From: an uncultured archaeon
GTDB lineage: Archaea > Nanobdellota > Nanobdellia > Woesearchaeales > CAIVOO01
Reading direction: 5' to 3'
Assembly (NCBI GenBank): GCA_903842985.1
Contig: CAIMOB010000038.1
Location: 1-38,960 of the forward strand
DNA: 38,960 nucleotides
Under the pieces are notes generated by a model. It made no database searches. It had not been told where the DNA came from and was given only the letters and a program-made list of their open reading frames with translations. The translations under genes were made by a program, and so were the position numbers. Positions within the stretch are counted from its first letter, which is position 1; each line of letters opens with the position of its first letter. This document shows, piece after piece, positions 8,658 to 34,820 of this stretch.

Positions 8658-8709
8658 GATGACACAAATCAAGGATTTGCGAACATTTTAACTCATGAGG
8701 TTCGTTAAA

Positions 8710-8844
8710 ATGAACAACAAAAAAATAAGTTTTGACCCAAAAGCCTTGCTCGACAAAATAAAAAATATACCTACAAACAAGCTGATTGCCTATGCAGTCA
8801 TAATTTTGGGTGCGATATTGTTGATAATTGGATTGTTGATATAA
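8710..8844 (+). CDS. Small membrane protein, 44 aa (MNNKKISFDPKALLDKIKNIPTNKLIAYAVIILGAILLIIGLLI)
   Basis: Manual translation; GAGGT SD; C-terminal TM helix; its TAA overlaps the aIF2-gamma ATG (TAATG). Confidence 0.7.
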   Translation: MNNKKISFDPKALLDKIKNIPTNKLIAYAVIILGAILLIIGLLI

Positions 8845-13905: not shown

Positions 13906-14673
13906 TTACTTCTTGATTATCTTCCCGTCTCCGGGCAGAAAGAGCATTATCTCATCCAAGTCCCCGCCAATCTCTTTTTTAACCTGTTTTGCCAAGTCTG
14001 ACTTCTTTACATCGCCCTGCACAATTATTACATATTTCTCTGCATGCTTCTGGACAGCTGTTATCGGTCCGCCGATTACCTGCCCTTCTTTTATCCCCAC
14101 TGCAATTCGCATGTCAAAGTCCTTGACAAAGTTCTTCTTGCCATAAATCATGAAAGCGCCCCTTGCTATGTATTCGCCAGGCTTTGCTGTTTTTGTCACC
14201 TGCTCGGGCGCCACGTAAAAAACATCCGGGGAAATGCCAATCTTCCACGCCCTTGAATATGCTGCGCAGACACTTGCAGCTTCCCTGATTGTCGCTTCCG
14301 GAATCTTTCCTGCTGACTTTATGGTAACAAACGGCGAACCTGCCATTTCCGTATGAAACACCAAATCGTTCTTGTCAGTGTATTTCTTTACAACAATCTC
14401 ATTTGTTGTGGCGTCCCTCCCGCCTATAACGAGCAGATTGTCAGAAGATAGGAACCAGTGGAATTTTTCGTACCATGCCTTTTCCCTGCGCACAATTACC
14501 TTTCTTGTCTTCTCCTCTTCAGCAAAGCCCTTTTTCAGCTCTTCCAATTTTTTCTTCTGGGACTCTATGACTTTCTTGACTGTCTCTATTTTCTTTTTTG
14601 ATTTTTTTGATTTTTCAAAATAGTCAGAAGCATTTTGTTCAATTGATTTCTTGATATTTATTGTCAGTTTCAT
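13906..14673 (-). CDS. NFACT RNA-binding domain (DUF814) protein, Rqc2 C-terminal-like
   Basis: EQNASDYFEKSKK coiled coil, WYEKFHWFLSSD..LVIGGRDATTNE, FHTEMAGSP, AAYSRAW, GAFMIYGKKN. Confidence 0.88.
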   Translation of the reverse strand: MKLTINIKKSIEQNASDYFEKSKKSKKKIETVKKVIESQKKKLEELKKGFAEEEKTRKVIVRREKAWYEKFHWFLSSDNLLVIGGRDATTNEIVVKKYTDKNDLVFHTEMAGSPFVTIKSAGKIPEATIREAASVCAAYSRAWKIGISPDVFYVAPEQVTKTAKPGEYIARGAFMIYGKKNFVKDFDMRIAVGIKEGQVIGGPITAVQKHAEKYVIIVQGDVKKSDLAKQVKKEIGGDLDEIMLFLPGDGKIIKK

Positions 14674-14705
14674 TTTTTGAACACGCGCGGTTACGCGCTT
14701 ATTAT

Positions 14706-14772
14706 TATGACACTTGTAAAATAGCTTTTTCCCGCCCTAACGCCTTTTTCTCTGAAAAAGGGGTTTGTTTTA
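14706..14772 (-). repeat. Dispersed 67-bp intergenic element, copy A
   Basis: Reverse complement matches 34633-34699 at 58/67 positions without gaps. Confidence 0.9.
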
Positions 14773-15657
14773 TAACAGTCCCTGCGCCAGCGAAAGTATG
14801 AAAACAGCAATTGTAATCAGTATCAGAGAATGCTTTATGCCCTGCATCGCTGCGCCTTCTGCAAGTTTTCCAATGACAAGCCCTGCAAACAGCCCCTGCA
14901 GCGAGGCGAGCATTATCAGCACGCCGTGAAGGCTGACAAACCAGTCCCTAACTGAAGTTACGAATGCGGGAAATGATGAGAAAGCAATGTGGACTGTCTT
15001 TGTCATCCCACTGAATCCTGTTTTCATAATTCCTACTGTAGACTGCGCCTGTTCAAGGTTTGACATGTAGGGAATCAATAAGTTCTGTATGACAATCATA
15101 ACAACCAGGAAAACCATGAAAATCACATAGCTTTGGATTATTTGAGTGTTCGCAGCTGCCCTTCTTTTCTGCTTTATTCTCCTTATTTCAACAACAGATG
15201 AGGTTATTGCTTCAAGAACATCCTCTATGTTGCCGCCGCTCATCTCTGCCTCTATCACAGAAGCTATTGCTCTTTTGATTACTGCGTTTTTTGTTTCGTT
15301 TGCAAATACTGTCAGCGACTTGTGAATTGGGATTGCCCACTCTATCTGGTGTGCAAGCTTTACAACATAGGGTGTCAGGGCGCCGTAATCTATTGTAGAT
15401 ACGTGAAGTATTGCCTTTGGTGCAGGCATGCCTGACCTTATGGAACCTACAAGGTTTCTTACAAACTCAGGGAATTTTGACTCTATTTCACGCTGGTGGG
15501 CAAGTTTTACCAGGAATCCCACCCAGAAAGGAAGCCATCCAACGGTCACTACAATAATAAGCAAAGGAATAAACCAGGGTGTTGTGCGAAAGAACAGTAT
15601 GTCTATGAAAAATAATGTCAGCGCGAAAACGATTCCGATGATGTAATTCTTTTTCAT
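14770..15657 (-). CDS. Type II secretion system F / TadC-like membrane platform protein
   Basis: IESKFPEFVRNLVGSIRSGM, DYGALT, EAEMSGGNIEDVL, AGLVIGKLAEG...GIKHS. Confidence 0.88.
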   Translation of the reverse strand: MKKNYIIGIVFALTLFFIDILFFRTTPWFIPLLIIVVTVGWLPFWVGFLVKLAHQREIESKFPEFVRNLVGSIRSGMPAPKAILHVSTIDYGALTPYVVKLAHQIEWAIPIHKSLTVFANETKNAVIKRAIASVIEAEMSGGNIEDVLEAITSSVVEIRRIKQKRRAAANTQIIQSYVIFMVFLVVMIVIQNLLIPYMSNLEQAQSTVGIMKTGFSGMTKTVHIAFSSFPAFVTSVRDWFVSLHGVLIMLASLQGLFAGLVIGKLAEGAAMQGIKHSLILITIAVFILSLAQGLL

Positions 15658-22815: not shown

Positions 22816-23266
22816 ATACCCTCTTTGCTGTTTTGCTTTCAGTCTTGAATATTGCCTTTATGCTGCCTGCCGGCGCTGAAAAATAATAAATATCCTCGTC
22901 AGTTATTACAGCCACTTTTCCCGTCCTGTTTATGCTGCCTGCTTCATTGTCCTGTAACGGGAGCTGGTTATTTATATTTATTGTTTTCCCGTATGCGTTG
23001 TAAACATAAACTCCTGACTGCGATGAGTAAATTGAAATAAACCTGAAATTCTTGTCTCTTGCTTTTGCAAACTCTGCAAATTTCTGTGTGAAATCCTCAA
23101 ACTTCCCCTGGTTCGCCGCGAACGGAGCCTCTTTCACATAGTTTTTCCACAGCTCGGTGAATTCTTTTTCTGGTTTCACAGTTGATTTTGTTGAAAGGAC
23201 TGTGCCAAACGCCATTGAAATCAGCAGCACTGCAATAATTATGTACATCTGTGATTTTTTGTTCAT
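22802..23266 (-). CDS. Prepilin-like (class III signal) protein
   Basis: MNKKS-QMYIIIAVLLISMA. Confidence 0.7.
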   Translation of the reverse strand: MNKKSQMYIIIAVLLISMAFGTVLSTKSTVKPEKEFTELWKNYVKEAPFAANQGKFEDFTQKFAEFAKARDKNFRFISIYSSQSGVYVYNAYGKTININNQLPLQDNEAGSINRTGKVAVITDEDIYYFSAPAGSIKAIFKTESKTAKRVYVYE

Positions 23267-26200
23267 ATTATCTCTATTGAAACATTCGGCACTCCGTTTG
23301 CCAGCCCGTTGTTCTTTATCACCAGCGTGTATTTTCCCTCCTGCACATAATCTTTTCCGCTAATCAGCAGGTCCGCATAGTTCAAAAGTATGTTTAGTTG
23401 GTATTCATCAGGGTTAAGGTCAAAGCCCATCGATGGGCTGATTTTGTCAAACAATGTCCTGTCTTCAAGCAGTTTGTTTCTCTCGCTAAGGGGCGCTTCG
23501 GGCTTTGTTACGAAAATGAATGTGTCTGAGTCCACTGCACCTGTTACCTTTCCTCCTGCAACAGGTGTTCCGCCTGTGTTTGTGCCTGCGCCGTATTTTG
23601 GATATCTTGAAGTGCCAGGTATCGCGTCTGATGAAGTGCCGTAAACTATTCTTGAATTCGAGACGCTGCAGCCGCTGCATTCTATTGTCAGCTCTGTCAC
23701 ATCAACCCTTGTTTTCGATATTCTCTTGACGTAGATTGTGTTAGACGTTCCGACAGCTGAACCATTAATATAGGCAACTGCATAGATTGAATTTATTCCG
23801 GCAGGTATGGATACGTTATTGAATTCAAACTCCAAATCAACAAGCTTTAATTCAACTGAAACATTGCTTGCAATGCCGTTGACAAACAAAGTCATGTTTG
23901 TCACATTCTGGCTGATTGTTCCTTTCAAATCTATCAAATCTTTTTTTGTCGGTGATTCATGAGGATAGAGCATGACATTGACTGCCCCTGCTGCCACAAT
24001 CGTGAGCTTATAGTGCCTTACAACATAGTTGCCTGCATTATCAAGTGTCTTGAAATGGAACCAGCTTGTTCCCGAAGGAGCTGTTATTGTCATCCCTGTC
24101 GATGATGCAGGAAGCTCTATTGCATTGTCAGGCATTGTTGTCGGATTCGAGTCAATAAGGTAGCTGAAGCCGTAGATGCCCGAAGGCGTGTCAGACGCTG
24201 TCCAGCTGAAGCTCACAGCTGTGCTGTAATAAGTCAGATTTTGATTTGGATGCGTTGAAGACGTAAGTGTTATTGTTGGAGGTATTGTATCAATCTTGAT
24301 TCCGTCGGATAAATCGCTTGCAATTTCTGTTATGTCTGTTGAAAGCTCCCAGGTGTCGTTGAAGCGAGTAGATGTAGGATTGTTGTATCCGCCGAACATC
24401 ACGATTTTATTCCTTGAACTATCAAAGACCATGCCCTGCTGATATCTTCCAAGAGGCCCGTTTGCTGGATTCAATTGTGTCCAGGATGTTCCATCGAACA
24501 GCCAGGTGTCATTTACTGTGTTTCCACTTGATATCAATCCGCCAAAAATCACCACATTTCCTGTCGAGCTGTCAAAAGCTGTTGATTGGGAATAACGCGC
24601 CGCAGGACTTGCCAGATTAATCTTTTTCCAATCTGTGCCGTTGAATTCCCATGTATCACTGAAAAAGTTTGCCGAGCCTCCTGTTTTGTTTATGCCGCCG
24701 AACAAGACGACTTTATTTCTTGAACTGTCAAATTCCATTCCATTATCGCAGTACCTGTTTGGAGGTGAAGTTGCTGTGCTTACGTTAACCCAATTAATTC
24801 CGTCGTATTCCCAGGTTTGGTCAGAACAACTAAGCACGAAAGGACTAAGCGAGACATTCATGCAGCCGCCGAACATCACTATTTTTCCCCTGCTGCTGTC
24901 GTATGTCATTGCAGGACCATTTAATCTTGGCGGATTTGTTGAAGTTGATATCTTTGTCCAGGTTCTTGCAGCAGGACTGTACTCCCAAGTCTCGTTAAGA
25001 CTTTCTTGGGAGATGTCTTGTCCGCCATAAAGAACAACCTTTCCCCTGCTGCTGTCATATGCCATTCCGTAACTGCTGCCTTCCTCTGGTGCGCTGGTTG
25101 TTGTTATTTCAGTCCAGGTGCTTGTGGCAGGATTATATTCCCAAGTGTCATTTTTGAAACCTGCTCCAGTTGTATACCCTCCAAACACAATAATCCTGTT
25201 TCTATTGGAGTCATAAACCATGCCTTGGTTTGTTCTTTTATCTGGCGCACCTATTGTGCTAATATTTTCCCAGCTGTAATCCCCGCTTCCATTGTACATC
25301 TTCACTTCAAATGTGTAATTGTGATTGTTTGTCAATGCCAGTCCTGTTGCATTCACAAACATTGCAGAACTTACACCAGTCCATCCTCTTATGTAGCTTG
25401 ACGCTGTCACATCCTTTATTCTGTAGCTGTAAGTGAAGTTTCCTGCAAGATTAGTTATCCAGTGGGCATACAGCGAGCTGTTGTGATTGCTCCAGTCTCC
25501 CTCGTCGTAAACCGCGAGCGTCGCATTAATCTGTGGCGCTGTCCCGTTCACTGAATAATAAATTGTATCACTGTCTTCTGCGATGTTTCCAGCCTGGTCC
25601 CTCACCTGATAGTAAACTGTCTTGTAGCCATAGCCGCCTGAAAGAACCCACGCCATTGTCGGCATGCATGGAACCCATTCTGTCCACTCGCCAACCTCAT
25701 TCCTATACCTGCAGTCCTTGACAGGAATCTCAATTTTTATTCCTCCTATGTTTGACATCTGCATTGTGCCTCCTGTTGGGCTTGTGTACGTTCCAAAGTT
25801 TCCTGTTGTGATGCTTGCTTCCCAGGTGTCATTATATATTATAGAAGAGCTGGCATTAGTTCCTCCAAAGAGAATTATTTTGTTTCTTACAGGATCAAAG
25901 ACAGAGCCATAAGGACCTGGATTTACTGGAGGCGAGCCAACTGTTGATGCCGGCTCCCAGGTAGTGTCATAGAATTCCCAGGTATCAAAATAGGTCATTG
26001 GACCATAGTCTCCACCTCCGAACATGACTGCCCTGTGCCTGATTGAATCGTACAGAAGCGAAGGCCTTACTCTTGGAAGAGGGTTGTTCACTGTATTAAC
26101 CAGCGCCCAATGATCAGTATACTTGTAGGTCAGGCTTGGGAAATAAATCCAGCCTATTCCGCCAAAAAATAATATTCCATTAATGCTTGGTATGTAATCT

Positions 26201-28518
26201 GCGCCTGCGAGGATTGTGCCTCCAAATGGCGGGTTGGTTGTTGAAGCCACATAACGCCATTGAGCGCCGTCGTATTCCCAAACCTGTGTATTCGTCGGCC
26301 CGAAAAGCTTTACCACATTTTTATCGCTGTCAAAAATCATCAAGTACGGATCGCTGGAGCCGGGCGGGATTTGGTTTGCACTGCTGATTTCTGTGCAGGT
26401 TCTTGCGGGAATGTCGCATTCAATTGTCCTGCTCATGTTAACGCCAGATCCGCTTCTGTCATAATAAAATGCAACAACCCTGTCCCTTTTGCTGTCATAG
26501 GTCCAGTCCCTTGAATTCCAAGCATGGTGGCACATGATTGTGGTGTTTCCTATTCCGCTGACATTAATTTCCTGCCATGCATGTGTTGCAGGATCATATT
26601 CCCAGGAACCATCGATGCAGTATGAGCCTGCAACTCCTGTATTCATTCCGCCGAGAAGGACAACCTTGTTCCTGTTGCGGTCAAAATACATTGTAGAGAT
26701 TCTTGGCGACGGCCTACTGCCTGTGGTGGTTATTTTCTGCCAGGAATACCGAGTTGTCATTGGAATGGCTGTTTCCTTCAGCGAGAATTCCCAAGTTATA
26801 ATACCAAAATAAATGATGCCAACCTCTCTTACTGGGTCATAAACAACAGGCGCCTGTATCGGATAAAATACTGCATTTACTAAACCGCCGGTGGTGCCGT
26901 TATAAACCGCAAGCGCTCCGCCCATGTGAATTATTATCTGGTCAAGCGAAGAATCATAAGCCAGCCTTGCCCCGCAGCTGCCGCTGCTTCCGCCAAAAGA
27001 AAGCTGCGTCCAGGTGGTATTGTTGGGGTTGTATTCCCATCCATTTTCACCATCGAAAAAAATCCTGTCCCTTGAAGGATAATAAACCATATGAGGCAAA
27101 TCACTTCCCCAGCATTCGTTTGGGGCATTTGTTGTTGTTATTTTCTGCCAGTTGGTGCCGTCGTATTCCCATGTATCATTAAAATTGGCGCTTCCGTTGT
27201 ATCCGCCAAACAGCACAATCCTATTTCTTGAACTGTCAAAAGTCATTGCAACAACTTTTCTTGGCTCAGGTGCGTTTGCTGTGGTTATTTTCTGCCAGTT
27301 GGTGCCGTCGTATTCCCAGGTGTCGTTGTAATACAATGTGTTGTATCCGCTACTGTTATAATACGAACCGCCGAATAATACAACCTTGTTTCTTGAACTA
27401 TCATAAGCCATTGCATAATTTGCCCTTGGCGAAGGTGCGTTTGCTGTATTGATTTTTTCCCAACTTGTCTTTGATTTTGTGCCTGCATATTCCAAATAAG
27501 GCGGGCTTGTTGCACCTGACACCAATGACAGGGGATTCTGCCAGGTGTAGTCGCTTCCTGCGCCGTTTGCCTGCCAGGCATTCGCATCAAAGTAAACGCA
27601 ATCAGCAGATAATCCGCTTAATGCAAAAAAGTTTTCAACAGCTGTGCAATTGCTGGCAAAAGAGCTGTATAAATAAACAGTTGCATAAGCGCCTGAACTA
27701 TTTATCAGCGCAACTGAAATATTCTCTGTGCCTGACAAGTCCACAGTACTGTTGTCCGCAGTTATTTCTGGGGATCCAAGAAGATAATTGCTTATAACGT
27801 ACCCAACAGAAATATAGTCCCTGCCGCCGTAGACCAGCGGAGCATAAGAAGCATGGTAATAAGGATAAGGCGCTGGCTCCAGATACTCCCACGTGTCGTT
27901 CAAATAAATATCCTGATATGAAGGACTTACCTTGCCTCCAAAAATAACAGACCTTTGCCTGCTGCTGTCATACACCATTGAGAAAGCGCTCCTTGTGCTC
28001 TGCGAAGTTTCAGGTGTCGGGCTGTTTACAGGGGTTACCCAGCCCAATCCCCGCTGATTTGTCATGTAATCAGAATAATTCAGAAGCAATGTCACTTCCT
28101 TTGTTGTTGTCATCCCATCATTGTTCTCATCGAATATTGCTATGGAGGCGTTCGGCGGCGTATTGTCAAGAATAACATTTGTCTCTGCTGTGGATAAGTT
28201 TGCGCCTGCTGACACGTTTGTTGTTATTGTCAGATTTTCGTTTTCTGTTGAAGTGACTAATATGCTTCCTTCATAGACAGCATCATTGTTCGGGTCTGTA
28301 AGATTGAGCGTGGGTGTGCCTGCATTGATTTTGAATGTGTTAACTGTGACATTCAAACCAAGAGTTTGTGCCGCATATTTGAAATTTAATGTGGTGCCGT
28401 TGCTGACGTATGGCGGCGTTGCTGTAAATACTCCGAATGTTGCAGCAAACACAGCAGGCAGTGCTATCAGAACTAAAGCTATCACCAAGCCAAGCCTTGC
28501 CTTTTTACTTATTGCCAA
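23263..28518 (-). CDS. Large secreted Kelch-repeat / Ig-FN3-like surface protein (putative pilus adhesin), 1751 aa
   Basis: Signal peptide (PAVFA); ~17-18 Kelch-like repeats (YDSSRNKVVLFGG...NDTWEYDGTNW); Ig-like segments (GYKTVYYQVRDQAGN, SDGIKIDTIPP, HFKTLDNAGN); TTG start with GGTG SD. Confidence 0.85.
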   Translation of the reverse strand: MAISKKARLGLVIALVLIALPAVFAATFGVFTATPPYVSNGTTLNFKYAAQTLGLNVTVNTFKINAGTPTLNLTDPNNDAVYEGSILVTSTENENLTITTNVSAGANLSTAETNVILDNTPPNASIAIFDENNDGMTTTKEVTLLLNYSDYMTNQRGLGWVTPVNSPTPETSQSTRSAFSMVYDSSRQRSVIFGGKVSPSYQDIYLNDTWEYLEPAPYPYYHASYAPLVYGGRDYISVGYVISNYLLGSPEITADNSTVDLSGTENISVALINSSGAYATVYLYSSFASNCTAVENFFALSGLSADCVYFDANAWQANGAGSDYTWQNPLSLVSGATSPPYLEYAGTKSKTSWEKINTANAPSPRANYAMAYDSSRNKVVLFGGSYYNSSGYNTLYYNDTWEYDGTNWQKITTANAPEPRKVVAMTFDSSRNRIVLFGGYNGSANFNDTWEYDGTNWQKITTTNAPNECWGSDLPHMVYYPSRDRIFFDGENGWEYNPNNTTWTQLSFGGSSGSCGARLAYDSSLDQIIIHMGGALAVYNGTTGGLVNAVFYPIQAPVVYDPVREVGIIYFGIITWEFSLKETAIPMTTRYSWQKITTTGSRPSPRISTMYFDRNRNKVVLLGGMNTGVAGSYCIDGSWEYDPATHAWQEINVSGIGNTTIMCHHAWNSRDWTYDSKRDRVVAFYYDRSGSGVNMSRTIECDIPARTCTEISSANQIPPGSSDPYLMIFDSDKNVVKLFGPTNTQVWEYDGAQWRYVASTTNPPFGGTILAGADYIPSINGILFFGGIGWIYFPSLTYKYTDHWALVNTVNNPLPRVRPSLLYDSIRHRAVMFGGGDYGPMTYFDTWEFYDTTWEPASTVGSPPVNPGPYGSVFDPVRNKIILFGGTNASSSIIYNDTWEASITTGNFGTYTSPTGGTMQMSNIGGIKIEIPVKDCRYRNEVGEWTEWVPCMPTMAWVLSGGYGYKTVYYQVRDQAGNIAEDSDTIYYSVNGTAPQINATLAVYDEGDWSNHNSSLYAHWITNLAGNFTYSYRIKDVTASSYIRGWTGVSSAMFVNATGLALTNNHNYTFEVKMYNGSGDYSWENISTIGAPDKRTNQGMVYDSNRNRIIVFGGYTTGAGFKNDTWEYNPATSTWTEITTTSAPEEGSSYGMAYDSSRGKVVLYGGQDISQESLNETWEYSPAARTWTKISTSTNPPRLNGPAMTYDSSRGKIVMFGGCMNVSLSPFVLSCSDQTWEYDGINWVNVSTATSPPNRYCDNGMEFDSSRNKVVLFGGINKTGGSANFFSDTWEFNGTDWKKINLASPAARYSQSTAFDSSTGNVVIFGGLISSGNTVNDTWLFDGTSWTQLNPANGPLGRYQQGMVFDSSRNKIVMFGGYNNPTSTRFNDTWELSTDITEIASDLSDGIKIDTIPPTITLTSSTHPNQNLTYYSTAVSFSWTASDTPSGIYGFSYLIDSNPTTMPDNAIELPASSTGMTITAPSGTSWFHFKTLDNAGNYVVRHYKLTIVAAGAVNVMLYPHESPTKKDLIDLKGTISQNVTNMTLFVNGIASNVSVELKLVDLEFEFNNVSIPAGINSIYAVAYINGSAVGTSNTIYVKRISKTRVDVTELTIECSGCSVSNSRIVYGTSSDAIPGTSRYPKYGAGTNTGGTPVAGGKVTGAVDSDTFIFVTKPEAPLSERNKLLEDRTLFDKISPSMGFDLNPDEYQLNILLNYADLLISGKDYVQEGKYTLVIKNNGLANGVPNVSIEII
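27137..27318. repeat. Identical 35-bp direct repeat (27137-27171 and 27284-27318) in adjacent Kelch blades
   Basis: GTTATTTTCTGCCAGTTGGTGCCGTCGTATTCCCA occurs twice, 147 bp (49 codons) apart. Confidence 0.9.
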
Positions 28519-34580: not shown

Positions 34581-34632
34581 ATCTCTACAGGAGAATAATA
34601 GGTTTTTTAAACTTTTGCCTGCAAAAACTGTT

Positions 34633-34699
34633 TAAAACAAACCCTTTCTTTAGAAAAGAAAGCGTTAGGGCGGAAAGAAACTATTTTACAAGTGTCATA
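34633..34699 (+). repeat. Dispersed 67-bp intergenic element, copy B
   Basis: 58/67 ungapped identity to the reverse complement of 14706-14772. Confidence 0.9.
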
Positions 34700-34820
34700 T
34701 TAGGCTAGTTTCCAGCCAAGCTGGAAACGTATTCTAAAAGATTAGCTGCGCATGTTCTATTAGCAAATTAAAAAACTTTTTAAATAACACTCATATATTA
34801 TTATAAAAAGAGGTGTTGCA

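Follow-up and report, generated by a model that had tools for sequence, protein, structure and literature searches.

The stretch of DNA analysed here (the window) is the whole 38,960-nt contig C38 of an uncultured woesearchaeal genome, G000 (879 kb, 92.65% complete). Its longest inverted repeat is formed by two intergenic copies, 14706-14772 on the plus strand (copy A) and 34633-34699 on the minus strand (copy B), which are identical at 58/67 positions. The nine mismatches (14725, 14728, 14731, 14744, 14747, 14750, 14754, 14757 and 14760 in copy A) fall at positions 1, 4 and 7 of each of three heptamers, and on recount both the identity and this placement agree exactly with a preliminary description of the locus. 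The 67-bp match reported there is real, but it does not delimit the element: a short head and a hairpin add ~27-37 nt on the 5' side, and the 3' end falls inside the match, at GGGTTTG (14767 in copy A, 34638 in copy B). The features of both copies are collected in Table 1. In the genome G006, the T2SSF/FlaJ-like and NFACT-like genes that flank copy A lie 6 nt apart, without the element. Most direct repeats in the window stem from a gene for a 1751-aa Kelch-repeat protein (23263-28518, minus strand). In addition, a sigma-70 consensus matched at 12/12 positions was observed at 34827-34800 (minus strand), ~60 nt before copy B and facing it; it is not conserved at the corresponding empty site of the congeneric genome G001 and thus possibly arose by chance.

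Table 1. Coordinates of the two element copies and associated features in the window.
Feature	Position	Strand	Remarks
Copy A, whole element	14679..14767	+	In a T-run between two co-oriented minus-strand genes
Genes flanking copy A	T2SSF/FlaJ-like 14770-15657; NFACT-like 13906-14673	-	Open reading frames
Copy A, 5' head and type-1 GC hairpin	14679..14698	+	5-bp stem, 4-nt loop; leading TA of TAGAAYAC absent
Copy A, middle segment	14699..14724	+	Contains ATGACAC core
Copy A, third strand	14725..14732	+	Heptamer plus triad 8; parallel match to purine tract
Copy A, terminal hairpin	14737..14767	+	14737-14750 pairs with 14754-14767; TCT loop
Copy A, duplex of the putative triplex	14743-14750 with 14754-14761	+	Within terminal hairpin
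Copy B, whole element	34638..34736	-	Divergent intergenic region; empty site in G001
Copy B, type-2 hairpin	34728-34708	-	Within element
Copy B, third strand	34680-34673	-	Terminal hairpin ends at 34638
Truncated head of older element	34737..34759	-	Stacked directly 5' of copy B
14-nt target duplication, upstream copy	34771..34784	-	TATA-like box; identical to single copy at empty G001 site
14-nt target duplication, downstream copy	34623..34636	-	13/14 identical; 1 nt past element 3' end

Across the family, the element is 92-101 nt long and intergenic. From 5' to 3', it comprises a head (consensus TAGAAYAC), a GC hairpin that comes in two types, and a middle part whose ATGACAC core hardly varies and which contains a weak hairpin in some copies. 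A pyrimidine tract and a linker follow, and then the terminal hairpin, which has at most 14 pairs around a TCT loop and ends at the last base of the element; the terminal stem of copy A is likewise flush with the 3' end. A second register of the layout scan revealed an eighth triad (C14732, G14761, C14743) that lengthens the predicted triplex. Over 18 copies, two-sided changes were found in 5/14 pairs of the terminal hairpin, with a covariation score of 0.216 versus 0.107 for a shuffled control that can be inflated by relatedness, and the hairpin of the middle segment is paired in 82% of cells, without two-sided change. Two features taken as general from copies A and B did not extend to the family: the linker is variable and covaries with the 3' tail, and each heptamer is mirror-symmetric in these two copies only by accident, the purine tracts of 8/20 copies being asymmetric.

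Eleven copies, one of them (C46) divergent, were detected in G000 by structure scan, profile HMM, covariance model and pattern search in concordance, and the congener G001 contains five full copies and one rearranged copy. Among six metagenome loci, four are copies; the other two, L032 and L033, matched the seed only and were dropped. A model (R1) was built from 18 of these copies, which it therefore matches by construction; with strict filters and 28 candidates scored per genome, it gave no match in 150 other genomes of the order or in five non-congeneric genomes of the family. A relaxed pattern applied to 401 genomes matched 11 times in G000, five times in G001 and once in G169, where the match was attributed to chance (it is not a hairpin, and a reversed control matched four times), so that no copy was found in the 399 other genomes of the order apart from this chance match. 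A BLAST-type search of 60 relatives returned just 18-20-nt chance matches outside the genus, searches of viral contigs gave 0, 1 (by chance) and 0 matches, and none was found in plasmid and phage searches. The genome G003, read whole, has no member and two unrelated triplex-like layouts. Copies are present in contigs from four public sequencing runs of two studies, which argues against an artefact of a single assembly, although the runs of one study (P1) may be the source of the window itself; no RNA run was among the runs holding the element. The comparison with Rfam proposed in the preliminary description yielded seven matches (E up to 5) across the window, with neither copy A nor copy B among them, and no match to a known MITE or REP family arose. 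The statement that no named family applies thus stood as far as Rfam is concerned but not in terms of layout, which is that of the PIT repeats according to the accessible text of PMC4666352. A literature search that covered few subscription papers and no supplements retrieved nothing on this element or on triplex repeats in DPANN archaea, and the ITxF tables of PMC4666352 cover archaea only up to 2014.

Comparison of the two congeners revealed a property that the preliminary description had missed, namely mobility. Seven G000 sites have both flanks or their neighbourhood covered in G001, and five of these (B, C14, C41, C43 and C46) are empty there, with C58 and C6 differing in more complex ways; the remaining four G000 sites (A, C2, C12 and C31) lie outside G001 coverage. 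Conversely, the sites of L013, L025 and L036 are empty in G000, which retains just a head with a compensated hairpin at the site of L019, and has different upstream DNA at those of L021, L023 and L031. The C58 and L035 copies occupy the same site in two genomes, with the same 3' junction and with a different heptamer and 5' flank. All copies are intergenic or at gene ends, with the sole exception of L001, which truncates a gene; their neighbours are for the most part genes for proteins. These patterns of presence and absence indicate that the element is almost certainly mobile. Double hairpins were also observed within copies of the element, as an insertion in C58 (G000:C58:7416-7463) and in place of the third strand in L025 (G001:C13).

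The preliminary description offered three explanations for the concerted changes in the heptamers, a triplex, two mutually exclusive pairings and a templated copying process, between which copies A and B cannot decide because they lack asymmetry; the asymmetric copies can. Among 20 copies (L025 was omitted, its third strand being replaced by two hairpins, and L017, the same as L001, was counted once), triads 1, 2, 4 and 7 switch as whole T-A-T or C-G-C sets. The distal tract carries the parallel (mirror, Hoogsteen) match in 13 of 16 informative cells, A in the other three and the direct or Watson-Crick match in none; the eight asymmetric copies represent four related haplotypes, so that the independent evidence is smaller than this cell count. 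Only 2/720 permutations of the six distinct haplotypes attain the observed match score. The only broken states are an A at triad 6 in three related copies and damage to a hairpin arm in two copies, and variation of the third heptamer independently of the hairpin, which had been named as a point against the original pattern, was not seen in further copies. A further asymmetric mirror haplotype occurs in three contigs of another study (run X5), and in the divergent copy C46 triads 8 and 9 are T-A-T and the outer stem is compensated. Perfect seven-triad layouts of the pyrimidine motif were found at eight loci in the 879 kb of G000, all of them family members, and at none in each of three locally shuffled genomes, which shows that the layout is not due to chance. 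A switch of two Watson-Crick pairings, or a copying process rewriting three tracts, is very improbable, because the pairing of distal and purine tracts that is conceivable in the 12 symmetric copies falls to 5/7 in all eight asymmetric ones, against a triplex match of 6-7/7, and because a direct copy was followed in 0/16 informative cells. To our knowledge, polymerases cannot template a mirror image, which makes selection on the three-stranded fold the simplest cause. Thus, the comparison among copies supports an intrastrand triplex rather than a pairing switch or templated copying, and this triplex is very probably the selected structure of the element. By analogy, a result from Escherichia coli may count against this triplex-based reading: in vivo footprinting of a triplex repeat gave no stable triplex, according to the portion of PMC4666352 at hand.

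Geometrically, either strand fits a triplex. The plus strand would adopt the parallel pyrimidine motif, which is possible as RNA or DNA, and the A/T-rich make-up suits T.A-T or U.A-U triads better than A.A-T. G-U wobble cells also favour the plus strand by 10 to 1, all of them in three columns of the weak middle hairpin. For the minus strand, the lone tolerated change in the third strand gives T.A-T, a standard triad of the purine motif; the antiparallel purine motif (class II) of this strand cannot form in RNA, as stated in the accessible text of PMC4666352. The folding energies of the two strands are close and do not choose between them. On balance, the sequences lean towards the plus strand as the one that would form the triplex.

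The scars left at filled sites are asymmetric. Every copy stops at the same base on its 3' side, and the 5' side carries 0-60 nt of target-like flank, in one case ~2 kb. Duplications range from none (C46 and L036) through ~6 nt (L013), 8 nt with a diverged extension (C41), 13 nt exact (C14), 14 nt with one change (copy B) and 18 nt exact (C43) to diverged duplicates of ~35-50 nt (L034 and C31). At L001, the 3' end of the element truncates a gene, an intact paralogue of which (53% identical) lies in the 5' flank, within ~2 kb. At C43, the sequence 3' of the element is the vertical orthologue, and the 40 nt on its 5' side match the promoter of a paralogous tRNA-Gln gene (79% to G000:C14, 83% to G001); the two tRNA-Gln genes at C43 and C14 share an 18-nt anchor. 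The L034 copy has a 3' flank that corresponds to the G001 allele and a 5' flank that corresponds to an allele of G000 type. Truncated older heads are stacked 5' of copy B, L023 and L019 (three at the last), and a fragment nearly identical to the head stacked at copy B is stacked at L019, a G001 copy. In 6/20 loci (L035, which shares its site with C58, was omitted), a TATA box follows the 3' end at a distance of 9-10 nt, compared with 0.6% of intergenic positions (binomial 2e-9, for a spacing picked post hoc), and in five more loci the 3' end meets the start of a TATA-like word on the other strand. Sparing of promoters by selection would account for part of this distribution, and not obviously for the exact TATA spacing. 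Two other hairpin-ended inserts, at the tRNA-Glu gene of C46 and in C57, bear the same duplication scar, which suggests a general insertion route.

We propose, with a probability of roughly 45% for the mechanism as a whole, that the element is a triplex-capped single strand inserted by homology anchoring. The 3' 43 nt, when single-stranded, would fold into an intrastrand triple helix of eight triads, in which pyrimidine and purine tracts form a hairpin and the upstream pyrimidine tract lies parallel in its major groove. The element would travel as a single strand, of DNA or of RNA/cDNA, and the folded end would resist 3' trimming and thus provide the exact terminus. The carried 5' flank, or the head, would pair with a similar stretch of the recipient, such as an orthologous gene end, a paralogous tRNA, a TATA box or an older copy; the 5' side would then be joined through this homology by host recombination or repair, and the folded end would be joined to the cut strand of the recipient, often at the edge of a promoter-bound complex. 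Such insertion would leave imperfect duplications, replaced copies and stacked heads, with no need for a dedicated transposase. Copies that lose a triad would spread less, and this would produce three-way covariation without any host function. That the element is in addition a minimal selfish one, with neither a gene nor a dedicated transposase, and that its triplex is selected purely as a mobility device, appears to us a doubtful extension of the proposal.

Several observations weigh against this proposal. That the head and the ATGACAC core are conserved suggests that a protein recognises them, which counts against a transposase-free reading. The 13-nt exact duplication at C14 and the 14-nt near-exact one at copy B fit an ordinary target-site duplication equally well, and C46 and L036, where no duplication is apparent from the sequence, would count against homology anchoring. 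In addition, searches of G000 and G001 recovered neither DprA nor ComEC, which leaves the passage of DNA between lineages without a candidate route and also counts against the mechanism.

The alternative that survives best, which we consider unlikely, is a SINE-like retro-element. Target-primed insertion typically gives a precise 3' end, duplications of varying length and a 5' side that differs between copies. All three are seen here, with duplications of 0-18 nt exact, and the element therefore has a SINE-like scar. Its plus-strand RNA, capped by a triple helix of U.A-U and C.G-C triads, would be reverse-transcribed from a nick in the target, possibly by the resident reverse transcriptase (RT) of a diversity-generating retroelement (DGR), and its 5' flank would come from read-through transcripts. 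G000 does encode an intact DGR RT, with a template and two variable repeats, the wobble cells favour the plus strand as described above, and a copy follows a same-sense gene in 13/20 loci, judged by reading the flanking open reading frames (ORFs). Triple helices are reported to shield eukaryotic retrotransposon RNAs in the available part of PMC13541005. Against these points, the upstream gene is antisense in the other 7/20 loci, the DGR is not linked to the element, its hairpin and repeats are unrelated to it, and no model match lies near the RT gene. No RT was found in the carrier G001, which is 64% complete, and G005 has an RT without the element. The differences between duplicated flanks are not of the adenine-specific kind that DGR copying would give, and the flank of L034 derived from another lineage would still require exchange of DNA or RNA between cells. 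The DGR itself is located at G000:C54:27704-29218 and G000:C13:21-108, with the template repeat just upstream of the RT gene; its variable repeats show adenine-type differences, each is followed by a short hairpin with a GAA loop, and both targets lie at contig ends.

It is also quite unlikely, in our estimation, that the element is a non-autonomous transposon of the MITE, PATE or REP kind, mobilised in trans by a transposase (HUH or another type) that has been lost or is missing from the assemblies, with the 5' flank acquired by one-ended transfer with read-through. Read-through past one end that captures flanking DNA is known for IS91/ISCR and Helitrons, and the element is short, intergenic and confined to the genus, has hairpins at both ends and shows conservation of its head. 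The incompleteness of the assemblies (92.65% and 64%), which also speaks for this explanation, limits all negative results on a mover. MITEs have terminal inverted repeats and fixed-length duplications; the ends of this element are unlike each other, its duplications are 0-18 nt exact or longer and diverged, and there is no fixed target word. Y1 TnpA and IS110 transposases were each found in 0/2 carrier genomes and an IS91-type Y2 transposase in 0/7 genomes, the last with a control that gave a weak signal, and in the IscB search the control gave no match. TnpB was not found in G000; TnpB and IS630 are present in G001 only, with ends unlike those of the element, and an integrase is likewise restricted to G001. 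No tnpB gene occurs among the ORFs flanking any of 21 copies, and the element model had no match at the two tnpB loci of G001, so that an identity as TnpB omega RNA was dropped. A scan of 131/132 G001 genes that are shared with G000 and missing from G003, many of them without a Pfam match, revealed no transposase or recombinase; 190 ORFs specific to G000 were covered by family searches and a motif regular expression only, so an enzyme could be missed.

Further candidates were discarded on inspection: a weak resolvase match resembles a TrmB-like regulator by reading, the 3' TA at copy A and L025 that resembled an IS630-type TA duplication belongs to host stop codons, and an integron attC was dropped on the basis of size and core sequence. 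Among the transposase genes of G001, a tnpB-like gene (L067:1117-2240 in G001:C12) is bounded by 13-nt inverted repeats, and a hairpin near its 3' end shares 13 nt with a family of 20-nt palindromes described below. The IS630-type transposase (L216:1-1200, at the start of G001:C13) is G+C-rich, unlike the host, and lies at a contig end; it may be a recent arrival or the result of mis-binning.

An explanation of another kind, that the element is a host-selected cis element (a terminator, an RNA-stabilising cap or a promoter insulator) retained for its triplex, is improbable. Strict structural conservation and the many copies positioned just after a stop codon or before a promoter are what it would predict. 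Copies nevertheless occur in both orientations relative to flanking genes that share no function, sites have been gained, replaced or reduced to remnants between congeners, and one copy (L001) truncates a gene. PIT repeats were without promoter or terminator activity in earlier work, as cited in the accessible part of PMC4666352.

The genomes contain other small repeats and unusual genes. A 20-nt palindrome, likely an operator or a second small element, is present in 11 copies in G000 (C2:3655, C6:987, C57:4788, C8, C9, C32, C51, C52, C54 and two in C4), each followed by a TATA-like box within ~5 nt, and two triplex copies lie immediately next to it. Members of a double-hairpin repeat family (~60 nt) occur at ~8660-8715 of the window, at about a dozen other places in G000 and also in G001. 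After the tRNA-Glu gene in G000:C46:8440-8560, a double-hairpin insert has the same GTTTG stem end without a triplex, and beyond it lies a decayed copy of the tRNA 3' end. In G000:C57:4500-4820, a 300-nt insert comprises a tRNA-like sequence not called by ARAGORN, with the 20-nt palindrome at its end, and the end of the upstream gene is duplicated behind it; in another genome, the triplex element occupies this site. Finally, L112:9117-10355 (G001:C19) encodes a 412-aa protein with sigma-70 regions 2, 3 and 4, which has a match in G000 and none in G003. A sigma-70-type protein is unexpected in an archaeon.

The family provides comparative evidence for a triplex under natural selection, in the form of whole-triad switches and of mirror rather than copy symmetry, and its filled and empty sites record the mode of insertion. 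If the proposed mechanism is true, homology-driven repair of the host would write the element in along with promoters, gene ends and, at times, entire genes that stem from paralogous loci or other lineages, which would constitute a route for swapping promoters and gene ends in a reduced archaeal genome. The same route could then explain the spread of the bacterial BoxC/PIT repeats.

Known systems share parts of this combination. In homology-facilitated illegitimate recombination and in IS91/ISCR transposition, one side is joined by homology and the other illegitimately, and flanking DNA is carried along. The element differs in that its illegitimate joint always falls on the same nucleotide and that its anchors go down to ~18 nt, and the searches described above recovered no competence genes and no Y2 transposase. 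The TnpB omega RNA of ISDra2 is likewise a mobile-element nucleic acid with a triple helix; in the available text of PMC10097598, it is a 116-nt scaffold with a pseudoknot to its 3' end and overlaps tnpB, whereas the 3' end of the element is paired in a stem and no tnpB is linked to it, which sets it apart from this class. As RNA, the element would share with the ENEs a 3'-terminal triplex in the major groove that is rich in U.A-U and interspersed with C.G-C triads, and ENEs have been proposed to block decay and aid transposition (PMC13541005, as far as accessible). However, an ENE is a U-rich internal loop that binds an A-rich tail, whereas in the element a 5' strand would lie on a terminal hairpin, and ENEs are eukaryotic or viral RNAs, whereas the element is known from DNA sequence (ENE features again from the accessible part of PMC13541005). 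Among archaea, G-rich hairpin/triplex repeats of Methanomicrobiaceae are also intergenic, repeated and near gene ends, and their antiparallel triplex has been demonstrated in vitro; they differ in being G-quadruplex-prone and G/C-rich, with another tract order and, in the portion of PMC8044849 at hand, no evidence of mobility.

The bacterial triplex repeats come closer. According to the accessible text of PMC4666352, which is the source for all features of these repeats given here, PIT, BoxC and TMECO repeats are dispersed, intergenic and in either orientation, with a hairpin and a mirror-image third tract, and are patchy in relatives, with unstable flanks and no linked transposase, as is the case here. 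Copies A and B, with eight triads and loops of 3 and 10 nt, fall within the PIT definition cited there from Hoyne (more than seven perfectly matched triads, loops of 0-10 nt). Read on the minus strand, the tract order is pyrimidine-purine-purine (class II), and on the plus strand it is third strand-pyrimidine-purine; the ITxF classes require both loops to be 1-6 nt (PMC4666352, in part), and the second loop here is 10-12 nt. The element is A/T-rich, with 5-6 of the seven variable triads T-A-T, unlike the G/C-rich PIT and TMECO repeats; its A/T-rich heptamers, its eight triads and its 10-nt second loop, partly paired as an extension of the stem, do not correspond to the G/C-rich TMECO/BoxC consensus of nine triads with a 3-nt second loop (same source, same extent). 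Further differences from PIT repeats as described there are the switching of whole triads between copies and the additional 5' head and hairpin. In the accessible part of PMC4666352, no function or means of spread is given for TMECO, which is read as a cause of instability without a route of mobility, whereas the scars of the present element show gain. Taken together, the closest known relatives by layout are the bacterial PIT/BoxC triplex repeats, and the scars are most like those of a one-ended, homology-assisted integration.
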